Positions 15,408-26,939 of a stretch of DNA of 33,833 nt are shown here, piece by piece (within the stretch, counting starts at the first letter, position 1; the number at the start of each line of letters is the position of its first letter). The notes beneath the pieces were generated by a model, which saw only the letters and a program-made list of their open reading frames with translations, was not told where the DNA came from and searched no databases. Position numbers and translations under genes: made by a program. The stretch covers positions 1 to 33,833 of the forward strand of contig JBGPQQ010000001.1 of NCBI GenBank assembly GCA_041489115.1. The letters run 5' to 3'. The DNA comes from Vicinamibacteria bacterium (GTDB lineage: Bacteria > Acidobacteriota > Vicinamibacteria > Fen-336).

Positions 15408-16358
15408 TCACTTCCCGGGGCCGGCCGGGCCCGCTTCCGCCCTGGCCGAGCCGGCGCCGGGGGCCGGTCCGTCGGGTCGAGCCCGCGCCTCCCGGATGCC
15501 CATCGCGACGAACAGCCCGGCGAGGATGGCCTGGGGCGGCGGCGGGCAGCCGGGGACGTAGATGTCGACCGGGATCACGCGGTCGACGCCGCCGCGCGAC
15601 GCGTACGTTCCCTCGCCGAAGAGGCCGCCGCTGCAGCCGCAGGCGCCCACCGCCACGACCACGCGGGGCTCGGGGGTCGCCTCCAGGGTCCGAAGGAGTG
15701 CGACCTCCATGTTCCGGGTGACGGGCCCCGTGACGAGCAGGAGATCCGCGTGCCGCGGGCTGGCCACGAAGTGGATCCCGAAGCGCTCGAGGTCGAAGAC
15801 GGGATTGGCCGTGGCAGCGATCTCGAGCTCGCAGCCGTTGCAGCTTCCCGCGTCCACCTGACGCACGTGAAGCGAGCGGCCGAGGCGGCCGCGGATCCGC
15901 GCCTTGAGGGCCTCGGCGGACTCGGCCAGCGAGGGCCCGGGCAGGCTCTCCTCCTGGCGGAACGTCGCGTGCCCCGTCGAATCGAGATCGAAGGAGGCAC
16001 GGCGGGTGAGCTGCTCGCGCGTGTACGTGGCGAGATCGAACTCGTTGCCGGCGGTCACCGCTCCCTCGGGGCACGCGGGGAGGCACTCGCGGCAGGAAAT
16101 GCACTGCCCGTAGGATAGGGACACGGTGCGGCTTGTCCTGAGTGAATACCCAGGGCTGGTCCTGGGCGAAGGCCCAGGGCGCGTCGGGTCCGTCTCACCG
16201 ACTTGGATCGCCCCCGTCGGGCAGGCGCGCGCGCAGTCCCCGCACGCGGTGCACCGCCGGAAGTCGATGACGGGGAAACCGAGGCGCAGCCGGGCCGCGA
16301 GTGGCCGCGGCTCGGTCACGATTCCGGTTCGCGCGCTGCGGGCCAGGATCCTGAACAT
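15408..16358 (-). CDS. Fused 2x[4Fe-4S] ferredoxin (HyfH/HycF/NuoI-like) + NuoB/HyfI/HycG-like small subunit
   Basis: ATG at 16358 follows GAGGAGGAG. The N-terminal half has CTACGDCARACP and CISCRECLPACP. The C-terminal half has GSCNGCE, VGACGCSGG and VPGCPP, so the NuoB-type cluster ligands are retained. Confidence 0.85.
   Translation of the reverse strand: MFRILARSARTGIVTEPRPLAARLRLGFPVIDFRRCTACGDCARACPTGAIQVGETDPTRPGPSPRTSPGYSLRTSRTVSLSYGQCISCRECLPACPEGAVTAGNEFDLATYTREQLTRRASFDLDSTGHATFRQEESLPGPSLAESAEALKARIRGRLGRSLHVRQVDAGSCNGCELEIAATANPVFDLERFGIHFVASPRHADLLLVTGPVTRNMEVALLRTLEATPEPRVVVAVGACGCSGGLFGEGTYASRGGVDRVIPVDIYVPGCPPPPQAILAGLFVAMGIREARARPDGPAPGAGSARAEAGPAGPGK
15493..15539. repeat. 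Partner of the 14171-14217 repeat, inside the intact NuoB-like gene
   Basis: 46/47 nt identical to 14171-14217. Confidence 0.85.
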
Positions 16359-16373
16359 CGCTCCTCCTCGCGC

Positions 16374-17957
16374 CTACCGGTCGTTTCCCGAGTACGACAG
16401 GTCGAAGCTCTTGTTGATCACGGGGAAGTCCGGGATGATGTTGCCCGGCACGGTCTGGGCGAGCCCGGGCCAGTTCTTGAAGCTCGGGTCCGTGACCTTG
16501 ACGCGGGTGAGACGCCCGTAGGCGTCCGTTTCCACCCAGTGCAGGCAGGGTCCGCGCCATCCCTCGGCCCACCCCAGGGCCGCCGAGAATGCCGGCAGCT
16601 CCGAAGGCAGCGGGGTGAGGAGAGGCGAGTCGGGGAGCGCGGAGAGCGCCTGACGGAGGATCGCGAGCGACTGCTCCACCTCCCTCGCCCGGACCATCAG
16701 CCGGGCGCGCACGTCGCCGCCCTCCTCCACCGGCACCTCGAAATGCAGCGAGTCGTAGGCGTCGTGCGGGTGGTCGCGGCGCAGGTCCTCGTCGATCCCG
16801 GAGGCCCGCGCGGCGAGGCCGACGACGCCGAGATCCCGGGCCGCCTCCGTCGAGAGCACCCCGGTCCCGTCCACCCGGTCGGTGAAGCTGCCCGAGTCGA
16901 TGAGCAGGGTGAACAGCGACTCGAAGTCGGCCTGGAACCGACGAAGGTGCGCCTGCAGCTCCTCTCGGCCCACGGCGGACAGGTCGGTTTTCACCCCACC
17001 CGGGGCCACCGTCCCGCGGAGCAGCCGGGACCCGAAGAGCCGCTCGTGCAGTGAGACGAGGCGCTCGCGCAACAGCTGGGCGTGCGCGGCGGGGGCGGCG
17101 AAGGCCACGTCGGTGGCGACGGCCCCGATGTCCGCGACGTGGTTGTAGAGGCGCTCGAGCTCCAGCAGGACGACGCGGAGGTGGCGCGCCCGGGGCGGCG
17201 GCGGGCAGCCGGTGAGCCTCTCGATCGCGTGGGCCCAGGCGAGAGCATGGCCCACCGCCGTGTCGCCGGAGACGGACTCGGCGAGATAGAGGCCGTGGCG
17301 CCACGGCAGCCGCTCGAAGCGCTTCTCCGTCCCCTTGTGCACGTAGAAGAGGCGGAGCTGCAGGTAGAGGACGGGCTCTCCGGCCACTCCGAAGCGGAAG
17401 TGCCCGGGCTCGATGATGCCGGCGTGCACGGGGCCCACCGGCACCTGGAAGACCCCTTCGCCCGTGACGGGACGGAACGGGTGAAGGGCGCCCTCCACGC
17501 GTGGCACGGAGCGGTCGTCGGCGAAGTCCTTGCGGAGCGCCCACTCGCCCTCGGGCCAGTCGTCGTGCAGGGAGACGCGGGTCGGGTTCGGGTGGCCCTC
17601 GGGCACGAGCCCGAACATGTCCATTACCTCGCGCTCGAACCAGTTCGCGGCGGGGTGCTTCGCCGCGATCGACGGGAAGCGGGGGTGCGCGGGATCGACG
17701 CGGGTGGAAACCCGCAGGAACGTCCGGTGTCTCGGCAGGAGCCAGACCTGGTGGAGGGCGTAGACCGCGTTCCAGACGCGCTCGTCGGTGGCGAAGAGAG
17801 ACGCCAGGCGGGCTCCCAGGCCGGACACGAGGCGGTCGGCCACGGCGGGGAGCGCTTCCGGCTCGACGTCGGCCCGCAGCTCCCCGGGGCGCGGCTCGCG
17901 GATGGAGCCCGCCGGGATGGCCAGGGCTTCGGCGACGACGGCGATCGCTGGGTTCAT
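16374..17957 (-). CDS. HycE/HyfG-like NuoC-NuoD fusion large subunit lacking all four NiFe cysteine ligands (Ehr-type large subunit)
   Basis: The N-terminus is NuoC-like (NWFEREVMDMFG). The NuoD-like core has GPVHAGIIEPGHFRF. The NiFe motif positions read ESVSGDTAVGH (17247-17279) and FDLSYSGNDR (16377-16406) in place of ERxCGxCxxxH and DPCxxCxxR. The ATG overlaps the upstream stop (ATGA at 17954-17957). Confidence 0.85.
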   Translation of the reverse strand: MNPAIAVVAEALAIPAGSIREPRPGELRADVEPEALPAVADRLVSGLGARLASLFATDERVWNAVYALHQVWLLPRHRTFLRVSTRVDPAHPRFPSIAAKHPAANWFEREVMDMFGLVPEGHPNPTRVSLHDDWPEGEWALRKDFADDRSVPRVEGALHPFRPVTGEGVFQVPVGPVHAGIIEPGHFRFGVAGEPVLYLQLRLFYVHKGTEKRFERLPWRHGLYLAESVSGDTAVGHALAWAHAIERLTGCPPPPRARHLRVVLLELERLYNHVADIGAVATDVAFAAPAAHAQLLRERLVSLHERLFGSRLLRGTVAPGGVKTDLSAVGREELQAHLRRFQADFESLFTLLIDSGSFTDRVDGTGVLSTEAARDLGVVGLAARASGIDEDLRRDHPHDAYDSLHFEVPVEEGGDVRARLMVRAREVEQSLAILRQALSALPDSPLLTPLPSELPAFSAALGWAEGWRGPCLHWVETDAYGRLTRVKVTDPSFKNWPGLAQTVPGNIIPDFPVINKSFDLSYSGNDR

Positions 17958-19462
17958 GCGCCCGCCTCCACGACCCGCAGGGCCGCGCGGATCAGCGCCA
18001 CGAGCGGCCCCGGCAGGTAGAACGCCGAGACGACGGCCAGCATCGCGGCGACGAGCGTCGTGCCCATGGCCAGGTCGAGCCGCTCCGGCAGTGCCCGACG
18101 ATCCCCGGGGTTGGCGTCGGGACCCGGGACGAGCCCTGGGTCTTCACCCAGGACAAGCTTGCCCACCTGGTAGAAGAAGCCGCAGAAGAGCACGACCAGG
18201 GCGGCGAGGAAGACCGCGGTCACCGCCGGGTGGGGACCGAAGAAGCCGGCCTTGAGGATCGTGATTTCGCTGAAGAACAGGCCGAAGGGCGGGGAGCCCG
18301 TCACCATGAGGGTCGCGAGGAGAAGCAGGCCGCTCGCGACCGGCGTTCGTGCCAGCGTGCCCTCGCCGATCTCGTCGAAATCGGACGACCGGTGGAGCTG
18401 GGCGAGCGTGCCCGCCGAGAAAAACGCCACTGGCTTGGCGAACGTGTGGTAGGTCATGTGGAGCAGGGCGCCGAAGGCAGCCGTCTCCCCCCCCAGGCCG
18501 AACCCCACCGCCATGATCCCCACGTGCTCGATGCTCGAGTAGGCCAGGAGGCGCTTGAGGTTCCACTGGATGAGGATGAAGGGCGTCGCGACGAGGACGG
18601 AGGCGAGCCCCAGGGCGAGGAGCAGCCGGCCCGAGAAGGCCGGCCCCAGGACGGCCTTCGACACGAGGTGCACCCGCAGGAGGGCGTAGAGAGAGCAGTT
18701 CATCATCCCCACCGCCATCAGGACGCCGGCGGGCGAGGGCGCCTCGCGGTAGGCATCCGGTTTCCAGGTGTGCATGGGAGCGAGGCCCGCCTTGGTGCCG
18801 TAGCCGATGAGGAGGAAGACGACGGCCAGCTTCACGGTGAACGGGTTGAGCTCGGCGGCGTGGGCGAGGAGCCGCGTCCAGTCGAGGGCCGACATCTCCT
18901 CGCCGAGGACGCCCTGGCCCGACGCGAAGAGCAGCACCGTGCCCAGGAGAGCGAAGGCGAGGCCCACGCTGCCGAGGACGAGGAACTTCCAGGCCGCCTC
19001 CAGGGAGGTGTCCCGGTTGTGGAAGGCCACCAGGAACACAGACGCGAGGGTGGTCGCCTCCACCGCGATCCAAAGGATGCCGAGGTTGTTGGACACGGCG
19101 ACGAGGAGCATCGCCGCCAGGTAGGCGGGCACGAGGGCCAGCAGCTCCGTTCTCCTCTTCGCCGGGACGAAGCCCGCTCGCTCGTTGCGCTCGAGGTATC
19201 CCACGGAGTAGAGGCCCGACAGCAGGCCCACGAAGGCGGTCAGGACGAGGACCAGCGCCGAGAGGCCGTCGACGCGTAGCGCCCCGCCGAAGGCGACGGG
19301 CGTCTCTCCGGCCAGAAACCGCGCGGCCGTGGCCAGGGCGAGGCCGAAAGTCGTCGCAAGGCCGCCCAGCAGGACGGCCTCCTTGGGCCGGCGCGGGCCG
19401 GGGAGCGCGCCGATGCCGGCGGTCGCGAGAGGAGCGGCGAGCGTCGCGAGGAGGAGGTTCAC
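17954..19462 (-). CDS. hyfF: HyfF/HyfD-like antiporter-type membrane subunit (NuoM/N family)
   Basis: A polytopic 502-aa protein with a proton-antiporter-like core (…WKPDAYREAPSPAGVLMA…, …LLAYSSIEHVGIM…). The GTG at 19462 lies 1 nt after the upstream stop. Confidence 0.8.
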   Translation of the reverse strand: MNLLLATLAAPLATAGIGALPGPRRPKEAVLLGGLATTFGLALATAARFLAGETPVAFGGALRVDGLSALVLVLTAFVGLLSGLYSVGYLERNERAGFVPAKRRTELLALVPAYLAAMLLVAVSNNLGILWIAVEATTLASVFLVAFHNRDTSLEAAWKFLVLGSVGLAFALLGTVLLFASGQGVLGEEMSALDWTRLLAHAAELNPFTVKLAVVFLLIGYGTKAGLAPMHTWKPDAYREAPSPAGVLMAVGMMNCSLYALLRVHLVSKAVLGPAFSGRLLLALGLASVLVATPFILIQWNLKRLLAYSSIEHVGIMAVGFGLGGETAAFGALLHMTYHTFAKPVAFFSAGTLAQLHRSSDFDEIGEGTLARTPVASGLLLLATLMVTGSPPFGLFFSEITILKAGFFGPHPAVTAVFLAALVVLFCGFFYQVGKLVLGEDPGLVPGPDANPGDRRALPERLDLAMGTTLVAAMLAVVSAFYLPGPLVALIRAALRVVEAGA

Positions 19463-19463
19463 C

Positions 19464-20120
19464 TCATCCCCTGAGGTTCGAGAGGCGGCTCGTGTCCATG
19501 GACTCGAAACGGTCCACGATGCGGTGCACGAGGACGCCCAGGACCAGCACGGCCAGGATCACGTCGAACGAGATGCCCAGCTCCACGATCAGGGGCATCC
19601 CCGAGGTCGCCCCCAACGCGACCAGGAACACGGCGTTCTCGACCGTGAGCAGGGCCAGGATCTGGGTGACGGCCTTGCGGCGCGTCACCATGAGGAAGAG
19701 GCCCATGAGGACCATCGAGAGGGCGACCCCGACCACCTGGTGGGGCACCCCCTGGCTGGCCCCGGCCATGCCGAGGCTCACCCGGTACCCCACCACGGTC
19801 AGGCCCAGGCACAGCAGCAGCGACGCCGGCACGTTGACGTAGGGCTCGATCTCCCGCCGGATGCCCACCCGGTCGATCACCTTCTGCAGGAACCAGGGGA
19901 TCAAGACGGCCTTCAGGACGATCGTGAGGCCGGCGGTGACGAAGAGGTGGAACCGATGCTCGGTCAGGCCCATAGCGACGCCCACCGCGCCGAGGAGCAG
20001 CGACTGCAGGCCGTAGAGCCGGATGGCGACGACGAGCGCCTTCTGGCCCACCATGAGGTAGACGGTCACCAGCATCCCCGCCGCGCACAGGATCACGAAG
20101 TCGTTGGTCATTCCGGTCAC
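19464..20120 (-). CDS. hyfE: HyfE-like small membrane subunit (NuoK-related)
   Basis: A 218-aa hydrophobic protein occupying the same position as HyfE in hyf operons. The start is GTG 20120 or ATG 20111, directly abutting the upstream TAG at 20121. Confidence 0.7.
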   Translation of the reverse strand: MTGMTNDFVILCAAGMLVTVYLMVGQKALVVAIRLYGLQSLLLGAVGVAMGLTEHRFHLFVTAGLTIVLKAVLIPWFLQKVIDRVGIRREIEPYVNVPASLLLCLGLTVVGYRVSLGMAGASQGVPHQVVGVALSMVLMGLFLMVTRRKAVTQILALLTVENAVFLVALGATSGMPLIVELGISFDVILAVLVLGVLVHRIVDRFESMDTSRLSNLRG

Positions 20121-21062
20121 CTAGAAGAACCGCATCGCCAGCGCGAGGAAGCCCAGGCCGAGCGACACCGCCATCAGCTCCGGGACCCGGAAGAAGCGGA
20201 GCTTGGCGTTGGTCGTCTCGACGAGGACCACCACCACCGCGAGGGCGACGATCTTCGCGGCCAGGAGGAGCGCGGCCACGCCGAGCGCCTGTGGCCGGAG
20301 GCTCGTGGCGACGCCGAGGGGCAGGAAGAGGTTGACGAGCAGCGTCATGAAGAGCAGCTCCTTCACCGCGGAGGCCCACTCGACGAGGGCGAGGTCCGGA
20401 CCGGAGTACTCGAGGACCATGGCCTCGTGGATCATGGTCAGCTCGAGGTGGGTGGCCGGGTTGTCCACCGGGATACGGCCCGCTTCGGCGAGGAGGACGA
20501 TGAACAGCGCCGCCGCCGCCAGCAGCTCGCTGGGGTGGATTGAGACCCCGCGCTCAGCGGTGCGCCGCGCGAGCTCGCCCAGGTTGAGCGAGCCGGCGGA
20601 GAGCCCCGCCGTGAAGAGGGCCAGCATCATGGCCGGCTCCGCCAGCGCCCCGACCGTCATCTCGCGGCTCGCGCCCATGCCGCCGAAGGGGCTGCCCGTG
20701 TCCAGAGCGGCCGCCGCCAGCGCGAAGCGCCCCAGGGCCAGGAGGCCGACCAGCAGCAGGATGCCGCCCGCCCCCTCGAGGGGCGGCGAGGTGATGAGCG
20801 TCGGGACGAGGGCGGTGGCCGCGAGCGCGCTCGCGAAGTAGACGCGCGGGCCGGCCACGAAGACCCACGACGCGGTCGTCGAGCGCACGGGCTCCTTGCG
20901 CAGCAGCTTCGCCAGGTCGCGGTACGGCTGCCACAGCGGCGGGCCCTGCCGGACCTGGAAGGCCGCCTTCATCTTCTTGATCAGCCCGCGCAGGAGCGGG
21001 GCGAGCAGAAGGAAGCCGGCGGCCTGCGCGACCGCGAAGAAGGCATCGTTCATCCCCGCCAC
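20121..21062 (-). CDS. hyfC: HyfC/HycD-like membrane subunit (NuoH family)
   Basis: …LLAPLLRGLIKKMKAAFQVRQGPPLWQPYRDLAKLL… is a typical HycD/NuoH N-terminus. ATG 21053 overlaps the upstream TGA (ATGA), and GTG 21062 is an alternative. Confidence 0.8.
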   Translation of the reverse strand: MAGMNDAFFAVAQAAGFLLLAPLLRGLIKKMKAAFQVRQGPPLWQPYRDLAKLLRKEPVRSTTASWVFVAGPRVYFASALAATALVPTLITSPPLEGAGGILLLVGLLALGRFALAAAALDTGSPFGGMGASREMTVGALAEPAMMLALFTAGLSAGSLNLGELARRTAERGVSIHPSELLAAAALFIVLLAEAGRIPVDNPATHLELTMIHEAMVLEYSGPDLALVEWASAVKELLFMTLLVNLFLPLGVATSLRPQALGVAALLLAAKIVALAVVVVLVETTNAKLRFFRVPELMAVSLGLGFLALAMRFF

Positions 21063-23089
21063 CAGAGGTAGACCACGAGAACGAGGACGAGAGCCATGAC
21101 GTAGCCGAGGTAGGCGTGGAGGCTCCCCGCCTGGATGACCCGCATGCGGGTCGCCAGGCCCAGGACCGTGCGCGTGAGGGGACGGTACACGAAGCGCTCG
21201 AAGGTGGGCTCGACCTCGGCCCGGTAGCGCACCTCTCTCGCGTAGTAGGGCGCCGCCTCCAGCGTCGAGACCTCACGGGTGGGGCGGTAGATGGCGCTGA
21301 AGATCATCATCAGGGGCTTCGAGAAGGCCGTCGCGGTGTACTCCGTCTCCGGCGAGAGCTCGCCGCCGCATCCCCAGGTCGGGGCGGTGCGGCGACTGAA
21401 GGCGGTGCGCGTCGCGACGAACGTCGCGACGGCCAGCGCGGCGGCCAGGGCGAGAGCTGCCGTGGGAAGAGCGAGCCAGTCGAAACCGCCGGGGCCCGGG
21501 GCGATCCGGAAGACGTCTCCCACCAGCGCCGCGCCCGGCCGGGCGCCGATCAGGCCGCCGGCGAGGCCGGCCAGCGCCTCGACCACGGGGCCGGGGAAGA
21601 GCCCCAGCGCGACGCAGGCCGCGGCGAGGCCGGCCTGGGGCGCCAGCATCAGCCAGTGTGACTCGCGCGCCTCGCTCGCGGCCGCGCTGCGGGGCAACGC
21701 CAGGAACGTGATGCCGAAGGCCTTGACGAAGCAGGCGGCGGCGAGCGCGGTCGTCAGCCCCAGCAGCGCGGCGCCGATCGGGAAGGCGACCCGGACGAAG
21801 GTGTCCGTCGAGGTGTGGAAGCCCAGCAGGAGCGACTGGAACACCAGCCACTCGCTCACGAAGCCGTTGAGGAAGGGCAGACCCGAGATGGCCGCCGAGG
21901 CGACGAGGAAGAACCCCGCCGTCCACGGCATGCGGCGGGCGAGGCCGCCCATCTCCTCGATGTGGCGAGTGCCGGTGGCGGCGCCGACACCGCCCGCCCC
22001 GAGAAAGAGCAGCCCCTTGAAGAGGGCGTGGTTGAGGACGTGGAGAAGCGAAGCCGCGAAGGCGAGCACCGCCAGCTCGGGCCGTCCCGTCGACCGAGCG
22101 AGCATCCCGACCCCGGCGGCCACGAGGATGATGCCGATGTTCTCGATGCTGTGATAGGCGAGCAGTCGCTTGAGGTCGTGCTGCATCAGCGCGTAGAGGA
22201 CTCCCATCACCATCGAGACGGCGCCCACGGCGAGGACGAGGCCGCCCCAGGCCCCGGCCGGCACCCCCAGGCCCGCGACGCACACGCGGAAGATCCCGTA
22301 GATTCCGACCTTGATCAGGACGCCGGACATGAGCGCGGAGATCGGGCTCGGCGCTGCCGGGTGGGCCTCGGGAAGCCAGACGTGGAGAGGGATCACCCCG
22401 GCCTTCACCCCGAATCCGGCGAGGAACAGCAGGAACACGACGTCGCGGGAGGGCGCCGCCGCCGCGTGTCGTCCGAGGATGTCGGTGAAGGCGAGCGAGT
22501 GCCCGCCCGAGGCGAGGAGGAAGAAGCCCGCGACGAGGCAGCCTGTGCCGACGTGCGACATGGCCAGGTAGAGGAAGGCGGCCCGGCGGGACTGTGCGTG
22601 CTCGTGCTCGGTCGCCACCAGGGCGACCGTGGCCAGGGTCATGATCTCCCAGGCGAAGAGGAAGCCGATGGCGTCGCCCGCCAGGAAGACCATCTCGACC
22701 GAGCCCAGCAGCACGTTGAAGCCGACGCCGACGAAGGCGACTCGGCCAGGGCTCGACCCGTGGGCGAAGTAGGCCACGCTGTAGACGGCGACCGCGACGC
22801 CCAGGATGGCGAGGACCACGAGGAACCAGCCCGAGAGGGCGTCCACGGCGTAGCCCAGCGTCAGCCCCGAGGCGGCGTGGCTGATGAAGGGACCCCGGGC
22901 AGCGGCGCCGCCGGCGCCGAGACCGAAGATCCCTATACCGCCAGTGAGCAGGGACGCCGCGGCGGACCCGCCGAAGGCCGTCCAGCGACTCGCGCGCGGG
23001 CTGCGGTGGAAGGCGAGCGTGAACGCGATCGCCGCCAGACGGGCGGCGGCGGCGAGGAGCAGCCAGGCCGCGGGCTCAGCGGCGTGCAA
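21050..23089 (-). CDS. hyfB: HyfB-like antiporter-type membrane subunit (NuoL family)
   Basis: A 679-aa polytopic protein with …HVWLPEAHPAAPSPISALMSG… and …LLAYHSIENIGI…. The TTG start at 23089 is preceded by GAGAGGGGG. Confidence 0.8.
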   Translation of the reverse strand: MHAAEPAAWLLLAAAARLAAIAFTLAFHRSPRASRWTAFGGSAAASLLTGGIGIFGLGAGGAAARGPFISHAASGLTLGYAVDALSGWFLVVLAILGVAVAVYSVAYFAHGSSPGRVAFVGVGFNVLLGSVEMVFLAGDAIGFLFAWEIMTLATVALVATEHEHAQSRRAAFLYLAMSHVGTGCLVAGFFLLASGGHSLAFTDILGRHAAAAPSRDVVFLLFLAGFGVKAGVIPLHVWLPEAHPAAPSPISALMSGVLIKVGIYGIFRVCVAGLGVPAGAWGGLVLAVGAVSMVMGVLYALMQHDLKRLLAYHSIENIGIILVAAGVGMLARSTGRPELAVLAFAASLLHVLNHALFKGLLFLGAGGVGAATGTRHIEEMGGLARRMPWTAGFFLVASAAISGLPFLNGFVSEWLVFQSLLLGFHTSTDTFVRVAFPIGAALLGLTTALAAACFVKAFGITFLALPRSAAASEARESHWLMLAPQAGLAAACVALGLFPGPVVEALAGLAGGLIGARPGAALVGDVFRIAPGPGGFDWLALPTAALALAAALAVATFVATRTAFSRRTAPTWGCGGELSPETEYTATAFSKPLMMIFSAIYRPTREVSTLEAAPYYAREVRYRAEVEPTFERFVYRPLTRTVLGLATRMRVIQAGSLHAYLGYVMALVLVLVVYLWWRG

Positions 23090-23107: not shown

Positions 23108-23569
23108 TCATCCCCGTGGTCCCGCCCCCTGCAGCCACGCGGGGTCGTAGACCAGGCGGAGACAGTGCGGACAAGGGGCGACGCCGCGGCGCTGGCGGAT
23201 GATCTGATCGAGCTTCGAATGCAGGCGCACGTGGCAACCAGAGCAGACACTCGCCACCAGGCGGACCACCGCCGGCTGTCGTCCCGCCCGGAGCGCCCGG
23301 TCGTAGGCTTCGAGGATCCCGGGCGAGATCCGCGCCCCGAGCCCCTGGCGTTCGTCCGCCATCTCGTCGTACACGGGCGTCCGCCGCGCGGCTTCACGCT
23401 CCAACAGAGCGGCGTCCAGCTCGGCCAGGTGGAGCAACGCGGAGATCTCGAGGGTCGTGCTCGTCGGGCCCGCGGTGGGCTGGCGCGCGGGGGCCGGCGG
23501 CTCGATCGGCGTCGCCTTCTTCCGGGGCGCCCGTCGGCGGGACCGGGCGCCGGTGTCGGCTTCGCTCAT
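23108..23569 (-). CDS. Coiled-coil + C4 Zn-ribbon protein (COG1579 / zf-RING_7 type), short paralogue
   Basis: The C-terminus reads CSGCHVRLHSKLDQIIRQRRGVAPCPHCLRLVY. ATG 23569 overlaps the upstream TGA (ATGA) and follows GGAG. The track start at 23584 is an alternative. Confidence 0.7.
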   Translation of the reverse strand: MSEADTGARSRRRAPRKKATPIEPPAPARQPTAGPTSTTLEISALLHLAELDAALLEREAARRTPVYDEMADERQGLGARISPGILEAYDRALRAGRQPAVVRLVASVCSGCHVRLHSKLDQIIRQRRGVAPCPHCLRLVYDPAWLQGAGPRG

Positions 23570-24186
23570 GGCTGCTCCGTCCATTCAGGGTCGTACATGA
23601 GCCGCTCGCAGTGGGGACACGGGACGAGGCGGGCCTCGCTCTGGAACTCGGAGGTGACCGCGATCGGCAGGCGATGAAAGCACCCCCAGCAGACGGCCCC
23701 GTGCGTGCCGATGGCCGCCGGCTGCCGGCCGAGGCGAAGCGCCTTCGCGTAGATCTCGAGCGCCACGCCAGGGATGCGGCTCATGAGCACGGTCCGGCGC
23801 TCGGCGAGATCGGCACACGCGTCTCGCAGGTCGGCGGACGCGGCGAGGGCGTCGGCCTGCTTCCTTTCCGCCTGTCGCATGACAAGAGCCACCCGCCTCT
23901 CCTTGCCTCGGAGCGCGCGCCGCAGCTTCTCCACCTCGGGAATGGCGGCTCCCGACTGCTCGAGCTGGTGCAGCTCCTCCCGGGCCGCCTCCAGCTCCGG
24001 AGTTAACCGTGTGAGGTCGCTCGTCGTCCGGTCGAGGATGGCGAGGGACTGCGCCACGGAAGCCTCGCGCTTCGCGAGGCCCTCGTCGAGGGCCACGAGG
24101 TCGAGCAGGGCTCGCACGTCGCCCCGGGCCGGCGCCACGGCGACCTTCGCCGTCTTTCTGCGGCACGTGTGCTCAACTCCGTCCAT
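23566..24186 (-). CDS. Coiled-coil + C4 Zn-ribbon protein (COG1579 / zf-RING_7 type), long paralogue
   Basis: ATG 24186 lies 5 nt after GAGGAGG. The coiled-coil region (…ELEAAREELHQLEQSGAAIPEVEKLRRALRGKERR…) is followed by CWGCFHRLPIAVTSEFQSEARLVPCPHCERLMY. Confidence 0.75.
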   Translation of the reverse strand: MDGVEHTCRRKTAKVAVAPARGDVRALLDLVALDEGLAKREASVAQSLAILDRTTSDLTRLTPELEAAREELHQLEQSGAAIPEVEKLRRALRGKERRVALVMRQAERKQADALAASADLRDACADLAERRTVLMSRIPGVALEIYAKALRLGRQPAAIGTHGAVCWGCFHRLPIAVTSEFQSEARLVPCPHCERLMYDPEWTEQP

Positions 24187-24658
24187 CGACACCTCCTCGT
24201 CCCGCATGGGGCGGCCGCGAGGGCGGCGAGATCGCGGCGCGGCCGCTGCGCAGGGCCCGGCGGAGAACCTCGGGTGGGGCGGGCCAGGACACGAATGCCG
24301 TTGCTCCGCCCTCGAGCGCGTCCTTGAGCCCGCGGGCGGCGGTCGTCGCGACGACGACGACTGCCGTGGAGGGAGAGATCCTCCGGCACTCCCGCAGGGC
24401 GACCATCCCCTTGAGCCCGAGGCGGTCGGCATTGACGATGAGCGCCGTCACCTCGCTCGCTCCGAGAAACGCCGGGGCTTCGCCGAGCTCGGCGAGCCGC
24501 ACAACGAAGGCGCCGTCCCGGCCGACGAGCTCCCGCGCGACGAAGGCCTCGAAATCGGCGGGCCATTCGTGCTCGTAGCCGGCCAGGGCCACGTGCAGCG
24601 GAGCGTGCTCGGGATCCTGTGCAGACGTGCCCATGGGTACCGCAGACCCGGACTGCAC
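24173..24658 (-). CDS. Stand-alone degenerate receiver (CheY-like) domain protein
   Basis: The layout is receiver-like (HVALAG…, ALIVNADRLGLKG, VVVVATT, GATAFVSWP), but the acidic pair, the phospho-Asp position and the conserved Lys appear substituted by eye. The start is uncertain (GTG 24658 or ATG 24634, no clear RBS). Confidence 0.5.
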   Translation of the reverse strand: MQSGSAVPMGTSAQDPEHAPLHVALAGYEHEWPADFEAFVARELVGRDGAFVVRLAELGEAPAFLGASEVTALIVNADRLGLKGMVALRECRRISPSTAVVVVATTAARGLKDALEGGATAFVSWPAPPEVLRRALRSGRAAISPPSRPPHAGRGGVDGRS

Positions 24659-24787
24659 GGGTCATGCCCTGCACGCGGGTCAGCCTCGAACTAGCTCATC
24701 TGGCTATGCTTATCTAGCAGGGTCTCCGGCCGTCTCGATCTGGAAGAGGCGGAAATATGCCGATTCCGCACTCGACGCTCCCCGGTG

Positions 24788-24804
24788 AAGCCCGTGGGGT
24801 GCCA
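24788..24804 (-). promoter_or_regulatory. Candidate sigma54 (-24/-12) promoter reading toward the receiver/Zn-ribbon/Ehr genes
   Basis: The minus strand reads TGGCAC-CCCAC-GGGCTT. The GG and GC have canonical spacing, but the -12 element is GGGC rather than TTGC. The site lies 19 nt downstream of the stop of the sigma54-type activator gene. Confidence 0.3.
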
Positions 24805-24822
24805 TTCCGGCATCTCGGGGGA

Positions 24823-26211
24823 TCAGAGTTCCGGCTTCGTTGCCGGACTGGCAGTCCGAGGCCCCGCCCCGGGACGGATCTGGTAGCTCCGGAGCTTGGT
24901 GTGCAGGGTACGCAGCCCGATCCCCAGCACGCGGGCGGCGTCTTTCAGCGTCGGGTAGGCCTCGACGGTGCGGCGGATGATCTCCCGCTCCGCGTCCTCC
25001 ATCCGCGTGCCGACCGGAAGCCGGATCTCGGCCGCCACGGTCGCTTCGCGCACGTTCGCGGGCAGGTCGGCCACGTCGATCTCCACCTTGGGGCTGGTGA
25101 GGGTGAGGCTCTCCATGCAGTTGCGAAGCTCCCGGATGTTGCCCGGCCAGCGATAGCGGGCGAGCTGGGCCAGGGCGTCCGGGGTCAGCCGCTTGGGAGC
25201 GAGGTCGGACTGTCGCGCGACGTCCTCGAGGAAACGCTGGGCGAGCACCGGGATCGCGTCCTGGCGGTCCCGCAGGGGCGGGACGGTGAGCGTGACGACC
25301 TTGAGGCGATAGTAGAGGTCGGAGCGGAAGCGCCCGCTCTCGACGAGCGCTTCCAGGTCGGCGTTGCTCGCGGCGAGGAGATGGATGTCGACCGCGATCT
25401 TGCGCGTGCCGCCCACGCGCCGGAACTCGCGCCGCTCGAGCGCCCGCAGGAGCTTGGCTTGGCAGCCGAGGCCCATCTCGTTGACCTCGTCGAGGAAGAG
25501 GGTGCCCCCGTCGGCGGTCTCCATCACGCCTTCCTTGGGCCGATCCGCGCTCGTGAAGGCCCCCCGCTCGTGGCCGAACAGCTCGCTCTCCAGGAGGGCC
25601 TCGGAGAGCGTCGCGCAGTTCACCGCGACGAAGGGGCCGTCCCGCCGGGGCCCCAGCGAGTGGAGAGCCCGCGCGATCAGCTCCTTGCCCGTCCCGCTCT
25701 CCCCGAGGATGAGGATGGTCGACTGGTGCCGGGCGAGCCTCTTGACGGTGTCGAAGAGCTCGAGCATGGCTCGCGAGCGTCCGATGATCCCGAGCCGGTC
25801 CATCTCCGCGGCGGCCCGCGACGGAGGCGTCGCCAGGACCCCGCTCGCGCTCGCCCGCTCGATGCCCCGGGCCAGGGTCGCGAGGAGGCTCTCGATGTCG
25901 AGGGGCTTGGTGAGGAAATCCGTGGCGCCGCGCTTCATCGCCTCGACGGCGGTGTCGACGGTCCCGAAGCCGGTGACGACGATGGCGGGCAGCCCGGGGT
26001 GCTGCTCGAGCACGGCGTCGAGGACGGCCGCGCCCTCCATGTCCGGGAGCTTCATGTCGAGGATGAGCGCGTGCAGCTTCTCGCGGCGGGCGGCGGCGAG
26101 CGCCGCGCGGCCGTTCGAGGCCTGGCGCACCGCGTAGCCGTTCTTCTCGAGCACCCAGGCCAGGCTCGACCGGCTCTCGGCGTGGTCCTCGACGAGGAGG
26201 ATGGTCTGCAT
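24823..26211 (-). CDS. NtrC-family response regulator (REC + sigma54-interaction AAA+ + Fis-type HTH)
   Basis: The receiver is canonical (LLVEDH, LILDMKLPDMEG, VVTGF, FLTKP). Walker A is GESGTGKE and Walker B is LFLDEV. The sigma54-contact loop reads GAFTSA (25546-25563). The C-terminal HTH is LKDAARVLGIGLRTLHTKL. The ATG overlaps the kinase stop (TGATG). Confidence 0.9.
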   Translation of the reverse strand: MQTILLVEDHAESRSSLAWVLEKNGYAVRQASNGRAALAAARREKLHALILDMKLPDMEGAAVLDAVLEQHPGLPAIVVTGFGTVDTAVEAMKRGATDFLTKPLDIESLLATLARGIERASASGVLATPPSRAAAEMDRLGIIGRSRAMLELFDTVKRLARHQSTILILGESGTGKELIARALHSLGPRRDGPFVAVNCATLSEALLESELFGHERGAFTSADRPKEGVMETADGGTLFLDEVNEMGLGCQAKLLRALERREFRRVGGTRKIAVDIHLLAASNADLEALVESGRFRSDLYYRLKVVTLTVPPLRDRQDAIPVLAQRFLEDVARQSDLAPKRLTPDALAQLARYRWPGNIRELRNCMESLTLTSPKVEIDVADLPANVREATVAAEIRLPVGTRMEDAEREIIRRTVEAYPTLKDAARVLGIGLRTLHTKLRSYQIRPGAGPRTASPATKPEL

Positions 26212-26939
26212 CAGCCGGCCCGCGGCCCCGCCGGCAGCGAGAGGCTGGCGCTGGTGCCTTCGCCCTCGCGGCTTCGCACGGCCAGGGTGCCCCCGTGAGC
26301 CTCCACGATGCGGCGCGCGATGGGGAGCCCCAGCCCGGTCCCGCCCTCGCGCGTCGTGAAGAACGCGTCGAACACGCGGGGGAGGACCTCCTCCGCCATG
26401 CCCTCGCCGGTGTCGCGCACCACGATCTCGAGCGCCCGCGCGTCGCCCCCGGCCTCGATCGCGATCGCGCCGCCGGCCGGCGTCGCCTGGATCGCGTTCA
26501 GCACCAGGTTCAGCACCGCGTGCTTCAGCTGGAAGCCGTCCGCCACGACGGTCTCGGGCCCGCCCGCGACGGCCAGGGAGAGCGACACCCCCTTGCGGGC
26601 GCACTCCGGGCCGATGAACGTCACGAGGTCCGCGAGGAGAGGGCGCACGGCCACCGGCTCCAGCTTCGGGCGGGGCGGCCGGGCGAAGCGCAGGAACTCC
26701 GTCACGAAGTTGTCGAGGCTGCGCAGCTCGTGGGCGATCTTGCCGATCACCTCGAAGACGTGGCGGTTGCGGTCGGGGACGATCTCCGACAGCTCCTGCT
26801 CGAGGATGCCCAGGTTGATCTGCAGGGCGTTGAGCGGGTTCCTGACCTCGTGGGCGATGCCGGCGGCGATCGCCTCGACGAGGGGCGCGTGCGGCTCCGC
26901 GGCGTGCTCCAGGCCGTCTTCGCCCGTCCGGTCACTCAC
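26211..26939 (-). CDS. Soluble minimal histidine kinase (HisKA + HATPase_c only, no sensor or TM domain)
   Basis: The H-box is GIAHEVRNPLNAL, the N-box LVLNAIQA, G1 DTGEGM and G2 GGTGLGLPIA. Only ~25 residues precede the H-box. The start is GTG at 26939. Confidence 0.85.
   Translation of the reverse strand: MSDRTGEDGLEHAAEPHAPLVEAIAAGIAHEVRNPLNALQINLGILEQELSEIVPDRNRHVFEVIGKIAHELRSLDNFVTEFLRFARPPRPKLEPVAVRPLLADLVTFIGPECARKGVSLSLAVAGGPETVVADGFQLKHAVLNLVLNAIQATPAGGAIAIEAGGDARALEIVVRDTGEGMAEEVLPRVFDAFFTTREGGTGLGLPIARRIVEAHGGTLAVRSREGEGTSASLSLPAGPRAG

Follow-up and report, generated by a model that had tools for sequence, protein, structure and literature searches.

A pseudo-receiver and shortened COG1579 zinc-ribbon proteins encoded at the front of a predicted sigma-54 operon for an Ehr-type membrane complex in Vicinamibacteria

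Introduction

What is the role of three small genes that stand between a sigma-54 activator gene and the genes of an Ehr-type membrane complex? The question is raised by contig JBGPQQ010000001.1 of a Vicinamibacteria bacterium. The window analysed here is the whole 33.8-kb contig, part of a metagenome-assembled genome (79% complete, 72% GC) whose close relatives carry the label Acidobacteriota, class Vicinamibacteria, in their records. The three genes encode a stand-alone receiver-like protein and two paralogues of the COG1579 family (DUF164), to which HP0958 (FlgZ) of Helicobacter pylori and CT398 (CdsZ) of Chlamydia trachomatis belong. An earlier note, made from the DNA letters alone, had described them as two translationally coupled paralogues and a degenerate receiver located between a sigma-54 activator and Ehr-like genes, and all of their open reading frames (ORFs) were confirmed on the minus strand. 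It also knew of no described hydrogenase or complex-I operon with these three accessory genes, and our literature search likewise found no description of them in hydrogenase, Ehr or complex-I operons.

Here it is reported that the trio makes up the promoter-proximal genes of a conserved operon with a predicted sigma-54 promoter, and that it probably belongs to the sigma-54 control module of this operon rather than to the enzyme. This module is real and conserved, narrowly distributed and, as far as could be found, undescribed.

Results

Gene order and transcription unit

The genes of the locus, in the direction of transcription, are the following:

26211..26939, minus strand: sensor-less histidine kinase of 242 residues, first gene of the control module, with only HisKA and HATPase_c domains in Pfam
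24823..26211, minus strand: NtrC-type sigma-54 enhancer-binding protein (the activator) with receiver, AAA+ Sigma54_activat and HTH_8 domains (Pfam, NCBIfam)
24822-24635: intergenic region of 188 nt between the activator and pseudo-receiver genes
24173..24634, minus strand: stand-alone pseudo-receiver of 153 residues, with a CheY fold, N68, W117 and no acidic pair
23566..24186, minus strand: long HP0958/CT398-family protein of 206 residues, with a shortened coiled coil and a C4 zinc ribbon (C166, C169, C190, C193)
23108..23569, minus strand: short HP0958/CT398-family protein of 153 residues, with a tail (1-33), a helical hairpin (35-94) and a C4 ribbon (C109, C112, C133, C136)
15408..23089, minus strand: six-gene operon for an Ehr (Hyf-like, NiFe-ligand-less) membrane complex (Pfam, NCBIfam), the downstream cargo of the same predicted transcription unit

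The stop codon of the kinase gene overlaps the start of the activator gene (26211). Within the trio, the start of the long ribbon gene overlaps the pseudo-receiver stop by 14 nt, and its own stop overlaps the start of the short ribbon gene in an ATGA at 23569-23566. Only 18 nt lie between the end of the short ribbon gene and the HyfB-like gene, which has its TTG start at 23089. The ATGA coupling and the 18-nt gap had both been pointed out in the earlier note and were found again here, and the stop/start overlaps among the trio genes are kept in relatives. Since every gene junction downstream of the promoter is either an overlap or a gap of at most 18 nt, the trio and the Ehr genes are predicted to form one sigma-54 transcription unit.

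Two start codons had to be corrected. The GTG at 24658, given by the ORF finder as the pseudo-receiver start, lies inside the -12 element of the promoter, and the start is instead the conserved ATG at 24634, which is aligned in all close pseudo-receiver orthologs. The long ribbon gene starts not at 24432 but at the ATG at 24186, with a GGAGG 6 nt upstream.

Activator, kinase and promoter region

The Sigma54_activat domain of the activator was matched at E 3e-66, and rpoN is present in the genome, on contig C14. The activator's sigma-54 contact loop (window 25546-25563) reads GAFTSA; among the 18 orthologous loci with a contact-loop match, 14 have GAFTSA and four GAFTGA, the Gly/Ser position varying freely in this lineage. 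The kinase has no input domain in Pfam, its H-box beginning about 30 residues from the N-terminus, and orthologs with 55-89% identity occupy the same position at related loci.

The stretch that leads from the activator to the start of the pseudo-receiver was compared among relatives, 11 loci being aligned and 18 scanned by pattern. It contains the following elements:

24841..24853, no strand: palindrome 1, TGCCAGTCCGGCA, a candidate site for activator binding that lies within the activator gene, in its 3' end
24800..24812, no strand: palindrome 2, TGCCGGAATGGCA, which includes a TGGCAC resembling a -24 box
24758..24770, no strand: palindrome 3, TGCGGAATCGGCA, 41-42 bp from palindrome 2
24654..24668, minus strand: sigma-54 -24/-12 promoter, GGCATGACCCGTGCA (GG-N10-GC), recognised by positional conservation among relatives

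In most of the 18 loci there are three palindromes of the form TGCCG-N3-CGGCA, lying near -217, -176 and -134 relative to the pseudo-receiver ATG; the aligned columns of palindrome 2 read TGCCG-GAACGGCAC. They are spaced by 41-42 bp, which places them on one face of the helix, and they can be regarded as candidate activator-binding sites. In 15 of these loci the pattern matched a -24/-12 element at a distance of 27-41 nt upstream of the start codon, with a consensus of GG(C/T)A(C/T)G-N4-xTGC(A/T) across relatives. At locus L039 it lies at -72 from a provisional start, and at L024 a variant ending in TGT is visible in the alignment only. In this GC-rich window the loose patterns are unspecific, with 49 promoter and 106 palindrome matches, so that the evidence for these elements is their positional conservation only. 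Because the trio genes come first in a conserved sigma-54 operon, their predicted link to sigma-54 is closer than adjacency to an activator gene.

Another promoter candidate, TGGCAC-N5-GGGC (24804-24790), was rejected: its TGGCAC (24804-24799) is half of palindrome 2, and the conserved element lies 136 nt downstream. The pseudo-receiver ATG stands about 20 nt past the GC of the -12 element, which predicts a 5' leader of only about 9-10 nt with no Shine-Dalgarno sequence; this spacing is the same in close orthologs.

Conservation of the gene order

The order kinase, activator, pseudo-receiver, ribbon gene and Ehr genes recurs in three metagenome contigs reached through orthologs of the long protein. 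The same kinase-to-Ehr arrangement was found in six relatives within the genus and in one within the family, as well as in Vicinamibacteria genomes that are less closely related, with pseudo-receiver identities of only 30-42%. A scan of genome contigs with the single long protein as query gave no match; a pseudo-receiver profile then succeeded.

A metagenome survey seeded solely with the short ribbon protein returned 80 loci, in which neighbours were counted where the flank was sufficient. The pseudo-receiver was upstream of the short ribbon gene in 29 of 30 loci, the activator was upstream in 16 of 16, and HyfB was downstream in 15 of 16. The association of the trio with the sigma-54 activator and the Ehr genes, seen in a single sequence in the earlier note, is thus conserved in related genomes. 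The ribbon pair did not hold as a constant feature: among 54 complete intervals from pseudo-receiver to HyfB, 29 contained one ribbon ORF, 22 two, one three and two none. The short paralogue is the constant partner and the long one a frequent one; in distant loci the long ribbon gene is placed after the short one. Some lineages have extra genes of their own within this block: in distant loci the short and the long ribbon gene are separated by a 237-residue lipoprotein-like ORF (L107:5387-6100), and a 118-residue HEAT-repeat ORF precedes HyfB in two JGI contigs (L020:11043-11399).

Inheritance of the module independently of the enzyme

Of 151 sampled genomes of the class, 12 had a strong ortholog of the pseudo-receiver (>150 bits), and these 12 fall in a single family; a further sample of 400 genomes of the phylum had none. 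The distribution of the module is accordingly narrow, being confined to one Vicinamibacteria family, and all of the genomes among the 14 named records are uncultured. In the same class sample, orthologs of the Ehr large subunit (at least 69% identity) were found in 20 genomes of four families, and nine of these 20 genomes lacked the pseudo-receiver (69-76% identity in these).

Five of the Ehr operons without a pseudo-receiver were inspected, together with an Ehr operon that has been relocated in genome G008. Upstream of all six there was no kinase, activator, pseudo-receiver or ribbon gene, the neighbours being unrelated genes; the -24/-12 pattern had no match there, and palindrome-like matches were at background level. 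The six parts of the module (kinase and activator, palindromes and promoter, pseudo-receiver and ribbon gene) are therefore present or absent as a whole, irrespective of the enzyme. This weighs against a role as obligatory assembly factors or subunits and favours placing the trio in the control module. It also speaks against the idea in the earlier note that the proteins are factors specific to this complex, given that orthologous complexes exist with no such module beside them.

Genome G008 belongs to the same genus as the window and shows a different arrangement. On its contig C6 (L025/L035) the kinase and activator genes are reduced to fragments beside an inserted gene, and the palindromes and promoter, together with the genes for the pseudo-receiver and the short ribbon protein, are intact. 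Its Ehr operon is on another contig, C7 (L051), behind an ornithine-cyclodeaminase-like gene.

A pseudo-receiver with tryptophan in place of lysine

The first protein of the trio had been read by eye as a phosphorylation-independent pseudo-receiver, and the alignments and the predicted fold bear this out. Its AlphaFold model is a (beta-alpha)5 CheY fold of five strand-helix units (predicted local distance difference test, pLDDT, 84), which gave 285 matches in the PDB at E <= 0.001; the 50 listed are all receiver-domain or receiver-like. Sequence families detected this relation poorly. Response_reg (PF00072) scored 16.6-16.8 bits (E 0.008-0.009) and did not reach its threshold of 30.2 bits, and none of the curated families in Pfam and NCBIfam matched the protein. 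A profile of orthologs matched a solved receiver at E 1.5e-7.

In the profile alignment N68 falls on the phospho-Asp of 6qrj at the end of beta3. W117 is aligned to the conserved Lys of 6qrj and to that of the neighbouring activator's receiver (GATAFVSWP versus GATDFLTKP). This Trp in place of the beta5 Lys is invariant in 27 sequences. The acceptor position is occupied by N, A, P, V or G in these sequences, with D only in a fused outlier (L044). The acidic pair is absent, the beta1-alpha1 loop reading GYEHEW or G-x-x-x-D-W, and a second, nearly invariant Trp is found in this loop. The protein fails three defining features of phospho-receivers. The most conserved stretch is the alpha4-beta5-alpha5 face, GLKDALEGGATAFVSWP. 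Within the genus the pseudo-receiver is 71-86% identical, as high as the Ehr subunits.

Two other origins or roles were considered for this protein. A flavodoxin-like electron carrier was rejected, since the 50 listed PDB matches are all of the receiver type with no flavodoxin among them, and Pfam returned nothing but Response_reg. Recent copying from the receiver of the neighbouring activator was also rejected, BLASTP aligning only the beta4-alpha5 stretch (E 0.002).

The fused outlier (L044:9806-10567) comes from a metagenome-assembled genome labelled Deltaproteobacteria. It joins a pseudo-receiver-like domain to pentapeptide repeats, keeps the SWP motif and has Asp at the acceptor position. 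On one side of the gene is an orthologous kinase-activator pair and on the other a Hyf-like operon that is less closely related (37-44% identity); no ribbon ORF is present.

Truncated zinc-ribbon paralogues of COG1579

The two other proteins of the trio are related to each other, with 44% identity across the C-terminal 80 residues (E 2e-18). Both end in a C4 ribbon, which reads CSGC-x20-CPHC (short protein) or CWGC-x20-CPHC (long protein) and is followed by (L/E)RLxYDP. The spacer of 17 or 18 residues given in the earlier note was a miscount, as 20 residues separate C112 from C133 in the short protein and C169 from C190 in the long one. The four cysteines are invariant in 26 homologues of the short protein and 22 of the long protein, and the ribbon is the best-conserved part of both paralogues.

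Single-sequence Pfam scores for the family were marginal. The gathering threshold of Zn_ribbon_9 (PF02591) is 29.1 bits; the long protein is just around it (26.2 bits on the protein, 29.8 in a six-frame search of the genome) and the short protein below it (18.6 and 19.7 bits, respectively). Many orthologs carry a precomputed PF02591 match. Despite these scores, the two proteins clearly belong to the HP0958/FlgZ/CT398 family. The ortholog profile of the short protein matched CT398 (4ilo) at 2.9e-11 and HP0958 (3na7) at 3.8e-11, and that of the long protein matched 3na7 at 7e-10 and 5y05 at 8e-6, with an alignment covering HP0958 residues 43-234. The NCBIfam CdsZ model matched the short protein at E 4e-11, although the score stayed well short of the equivalog cut-off. 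For the short protein AlphaFold predicted helices at 35-60, 67-79 and 83-94 (pLDDT 80), and Foldseek matched this model in the PDB only to 3na7, 4ilo and the mycobacterial 5y05/5y06. The assignment to COG1579 proposed from the sequence alone is upheld by these profiles (3e-11 to 7e-10) and fold matches, and the proposed paralogy holds as well. A rubredoxin-like iron centre was considered for the ribbon proteins and rejected, with no rubredoxin fold match at E <= 10 when the short-protein model was searched against the PDB.

Both operon proteins are truncated members of the family with a shortened coiled coil. PF24481 (CT398_CC), an antiparallel coiled-coil hairpin of about 180 residues, had no match in either of them, and it does match the canonical paralogues. 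The short protein also has a disordered, basic, Pro-rich tail (window 23459-23569). This tail is N-terminal in the clade of the window (net charge +3 to +6) and C-terminal in four of six distant orthologs (+3 to +5; loci L039, L040, L042 and L043).

A canonical COG1579 gene is present elsewhere in the genome (contig C173:1-702), with a CT398-type coiled coil and a ribbon cut by the contig end. Together with the two operon copies, this makes three COG1579 paralogues in one genome, and a single copy is what nearly every bacterium was found to have (Pereira et al., PMC3372290). In a tree of ribbon domains the operon copies split from the canonical paralogue; the branches are long, the root was placed at the midpoint and the order of duplications is unsupported.

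Comparison with known systems

The general literature on COG1579 gives few clues to its role. HP0958 stabilises RpoN against turnover, an effect that requires its ribbon cysteines (PMC3372290), and CT398 binds the RpoN holoenzyme (PMC5947703, summarising Barta 2015). Elsewhere the only general clue is a statistical co-occurrence with rpoN (PMC3372290), and the synteny of the family is with NIF3 and with rpoD-dnaG (PMC3372290, PMC8469502). The operon copies resemble HP0958 and CT398 in their C-terminal C4 ribbon after a helical hairpin, and in both cases the genome encodes sigma-54. They differ in being extra paralogues beside a canonical gene and in their size (206 and 153 residues, against about 250). 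Their genes form part of a sigma-54 operon that encodes a respiratory-type complex, have neither NIF3 nor rpoD-dnaG as neighbours and lack a flagellar or type III secretion context. Unlike in CT398, the RpoN-binding coiled coil is largely missing from the short copy.

Three other systems offer partial parallels. PspA is encoded first in a sigma-54 operon activated by its target PspF, and it feeds back on PspF. The locus resembles this pair in having a helical protein gene at the front of a sigma-54 operon and a link to membrane energetics, and a feedback could be supposed here by analogy. There is no sequence or fold relation between the proteins, and PspF has neither a receiver domain nor a partner kinase.

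The hyf and hyc operons of Escherichia coli, of the group-4-hydrogenase type, are driven by the sigma-54 activators HyfR and FhlA, which are of the formate-sensing GAF type. As in these operons, a membrane complex of this type stands behind a predicted sigma-54 promoter with a dedicated activator nearby. However, the activator here is of the NtrC type with a sensor-less kinase and the Ehr complex is Cys-less, and genes for a pseudo-receiver or a COG1579 protein are not known from the E. coli operons. An NCBIfam search gave a match to the FlhA model.

Known pseudo-receiver domains have a CheY fold that lacks the phospho-acceptor Asp and other active-site residues, and are presumably protein-binding modules. 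The protein described here has likewise lost its active-site residues on a CheY fold, but it is a stand-alone protein of about 150 residues with Trp replacing the beta5 Lys in every member.

Discussion

Probable regulators embedded in the operon

The position of the trio suggests that it regulates the operon to which it belongs. The activator, phosphorylated by the input-less kinase, would bind the three palindromes in helical register and fire the -24/-12 promoter about 20 nt before the pseudo-receiver ATG. A single transcript would then encode the pseudo-receiver, one or two ribbon proteins and the Ehr complex, and the overlapping stop and start codons would yield the pseudo-receiver and the ribbon protein(s) in a fixed ratio. 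The pseudo-receiver could dock, unphosphorylated and with no consumption of phosphate, on the kinase or on the receiver of the activator. Sigma-54 or the activator could be the target of the ribbon proteins, the precedent for this proposal being the action of HP0958 and CT398 on RpoN. In this way the trio would feed back on its own expression. The protein-protein contacts, and the sign of the feedback, are in every case what we infer.

The descent of the pseudo-receiver from receiver domains, its strongly conserved alpha4-beta5-alpha5 face and the lack of an input domain in the kinase all count in favour of a regulatory role. On the basis of the sequence comparisons, we give about an even chance to feedback regulation by the trio acting on sigma-54, the activator or the kinase. 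Among the roles offered in the earlier note, this favours the regulatory one, and the existence of Ehr operons with no module speaks against assembly and tethering. It is rather less likely that the pseudo-receiver and the ribbon protein(s) form a dedicated device, working on sigma-54 itself or on the activator or kinase, that ties the expression of a respiratory-type complex to the output of that complex.

Several points weigh against feedback regulation by the trio. The short paralogue, which is universally present, has lost most of its coiled coil, and neither operon copy matches CT398_CC; the long coiled coil is the sole part of CT398 that binds RpoN (PMC5947703). In genome G008, where the kinase and activator have decayed, the adjacent pseudo-receiver and short ribbon genes are kept intact and lie away from Ehr; if they served purely to regulate that activator, their persistence would be surprising, unless the decay happened recently. 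Binding of RNA would suit the basic tail and the ribbon equally well. Lastly, the co-inheritance with kinase and activator could be explained by one ancestral insertion of the block.

Alternative roles

The suitability for RNA binding leads to a different proposal, in which the ribbon proteins bind the long mRNA of the operon with the pseudo-receiver as an adaptor, either stabilising the message or linking its translation with the insertion of the polytopic Ehr subunits into the membrane, as has been proposed for HP0958 with flaA mRNA. HP0958's zinc-ribbon domain binds flaA mRNA (PMC5947703), and the ribbon is the part that is best conserved in both paralogues here; moreover, the short protein always has the basic Pro-rich disordered tail, and the predicted 5' leader is very short and has no Shine-Dalgarno sequence. 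However, Ehr operons of the same architecture manage with no ribbon genes, and the proposal leaves unexplained both the pseudo-receiver and the strict linkage to kinase and activator. A conserved RNA element downstream of the promoter was neither sought nor noticed. An RNA-directed role is therefore considered unlikely. The trio could instead supply assembly, tethering or electron-input factors for the Ehr complex of this lineage, as would fit their predicted co-transcription with Ehr genes only 18 nt downstream and the HyfB gene that follows in 15 of 16 surveyed loci. HP0958 and CT398 also bind regulators of membrane-apparatus ATPases (PMC5947703), and the electron donor of Ehr complexes is unknown (PMC6349859). 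This role is rather improbable, with the pseudo-receiver missing from nine of 20 genomes with an Ehr ortholog, the whole module missing from all five operons inspected, and the trio genes and Ehr on different contigs in G008. Nor does the trio contain redox-cofactor motifs, and its models gave no flavodoxin among the 50 listed PDB matches of the pseudo-receiver and no rubredoxin for the ribbon model at E <= 10.

It could also be argued that the three genes have no function and are what is left of a response regulator and a duplicated COG1579 gene in decay, hitch-hiking with the kinase-activator block. The loss of the classic receiver residues, the truncation of the short paralogue and a ribbon gene number ranging from 0 to 3 are what such decay might leave. 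It is nevertheless very improbable that the genes are mere passengers: the ORFs are intact in more than 50 loci, the pseudo-receiver is conserved within the genus at the level of the Ehr subunits (71-86% identity), and W117, the GATAF motif and the four ribbon cysteines are invariant. The translational coupling is conserved as well, and both structure models are confident (pLDDT 84 and 80). Among these possibilities, regulation from within the operon is the reading that is retained here.

Significance

COG1579/DUF164 is a widespread family whose role outside Helicobacter and Chlamydia is unsettled, the studied roles being in flagella and type III secretion. In the locus described here, extra paralogues of the family are wired physically into a sigma-54 promoter/activator module in a non-flagellar setting. 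If the pseudo-receiver and the ribbon protein(s) do form a dedicated device of the kind considered above, this would be the first functional context of COG1579 outside flagella and type III secretion, and would give direct genomic support to COG1579 as a general sigma-54 partner. The compact system of about seven parts offers a natural test bed for this hypothesis. The combination of an input-less kinase with a stand-alone pseudo-receiver carrying Trp for Lys also suggests a testable idea on how signals are received or limited in minimal two-component systems. The substrate of Ehr is unknown, and the signal that switches the operon on could be a route to its physiology.

The Ehr operon and its variation among relatives

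The large subunit of the Hyf-like complex has SGDT and SYSG in place of the two CxxC motifs of NiFe hydrogenases, which identifies the complex as Cys-less and of the Ehr type. The window has one HyfB-like gene, and many related Ehr operons have two in tandem (L019, L038, L042, L045, L046-L048 and L050). At loci L019 (an ENA contig) and L026 there are apparent frameshifts in HyfB, HyfF, the NuoCD-like gene, the activator and the start of the pseudo-receiver, which are most simply explained as assembly errors.

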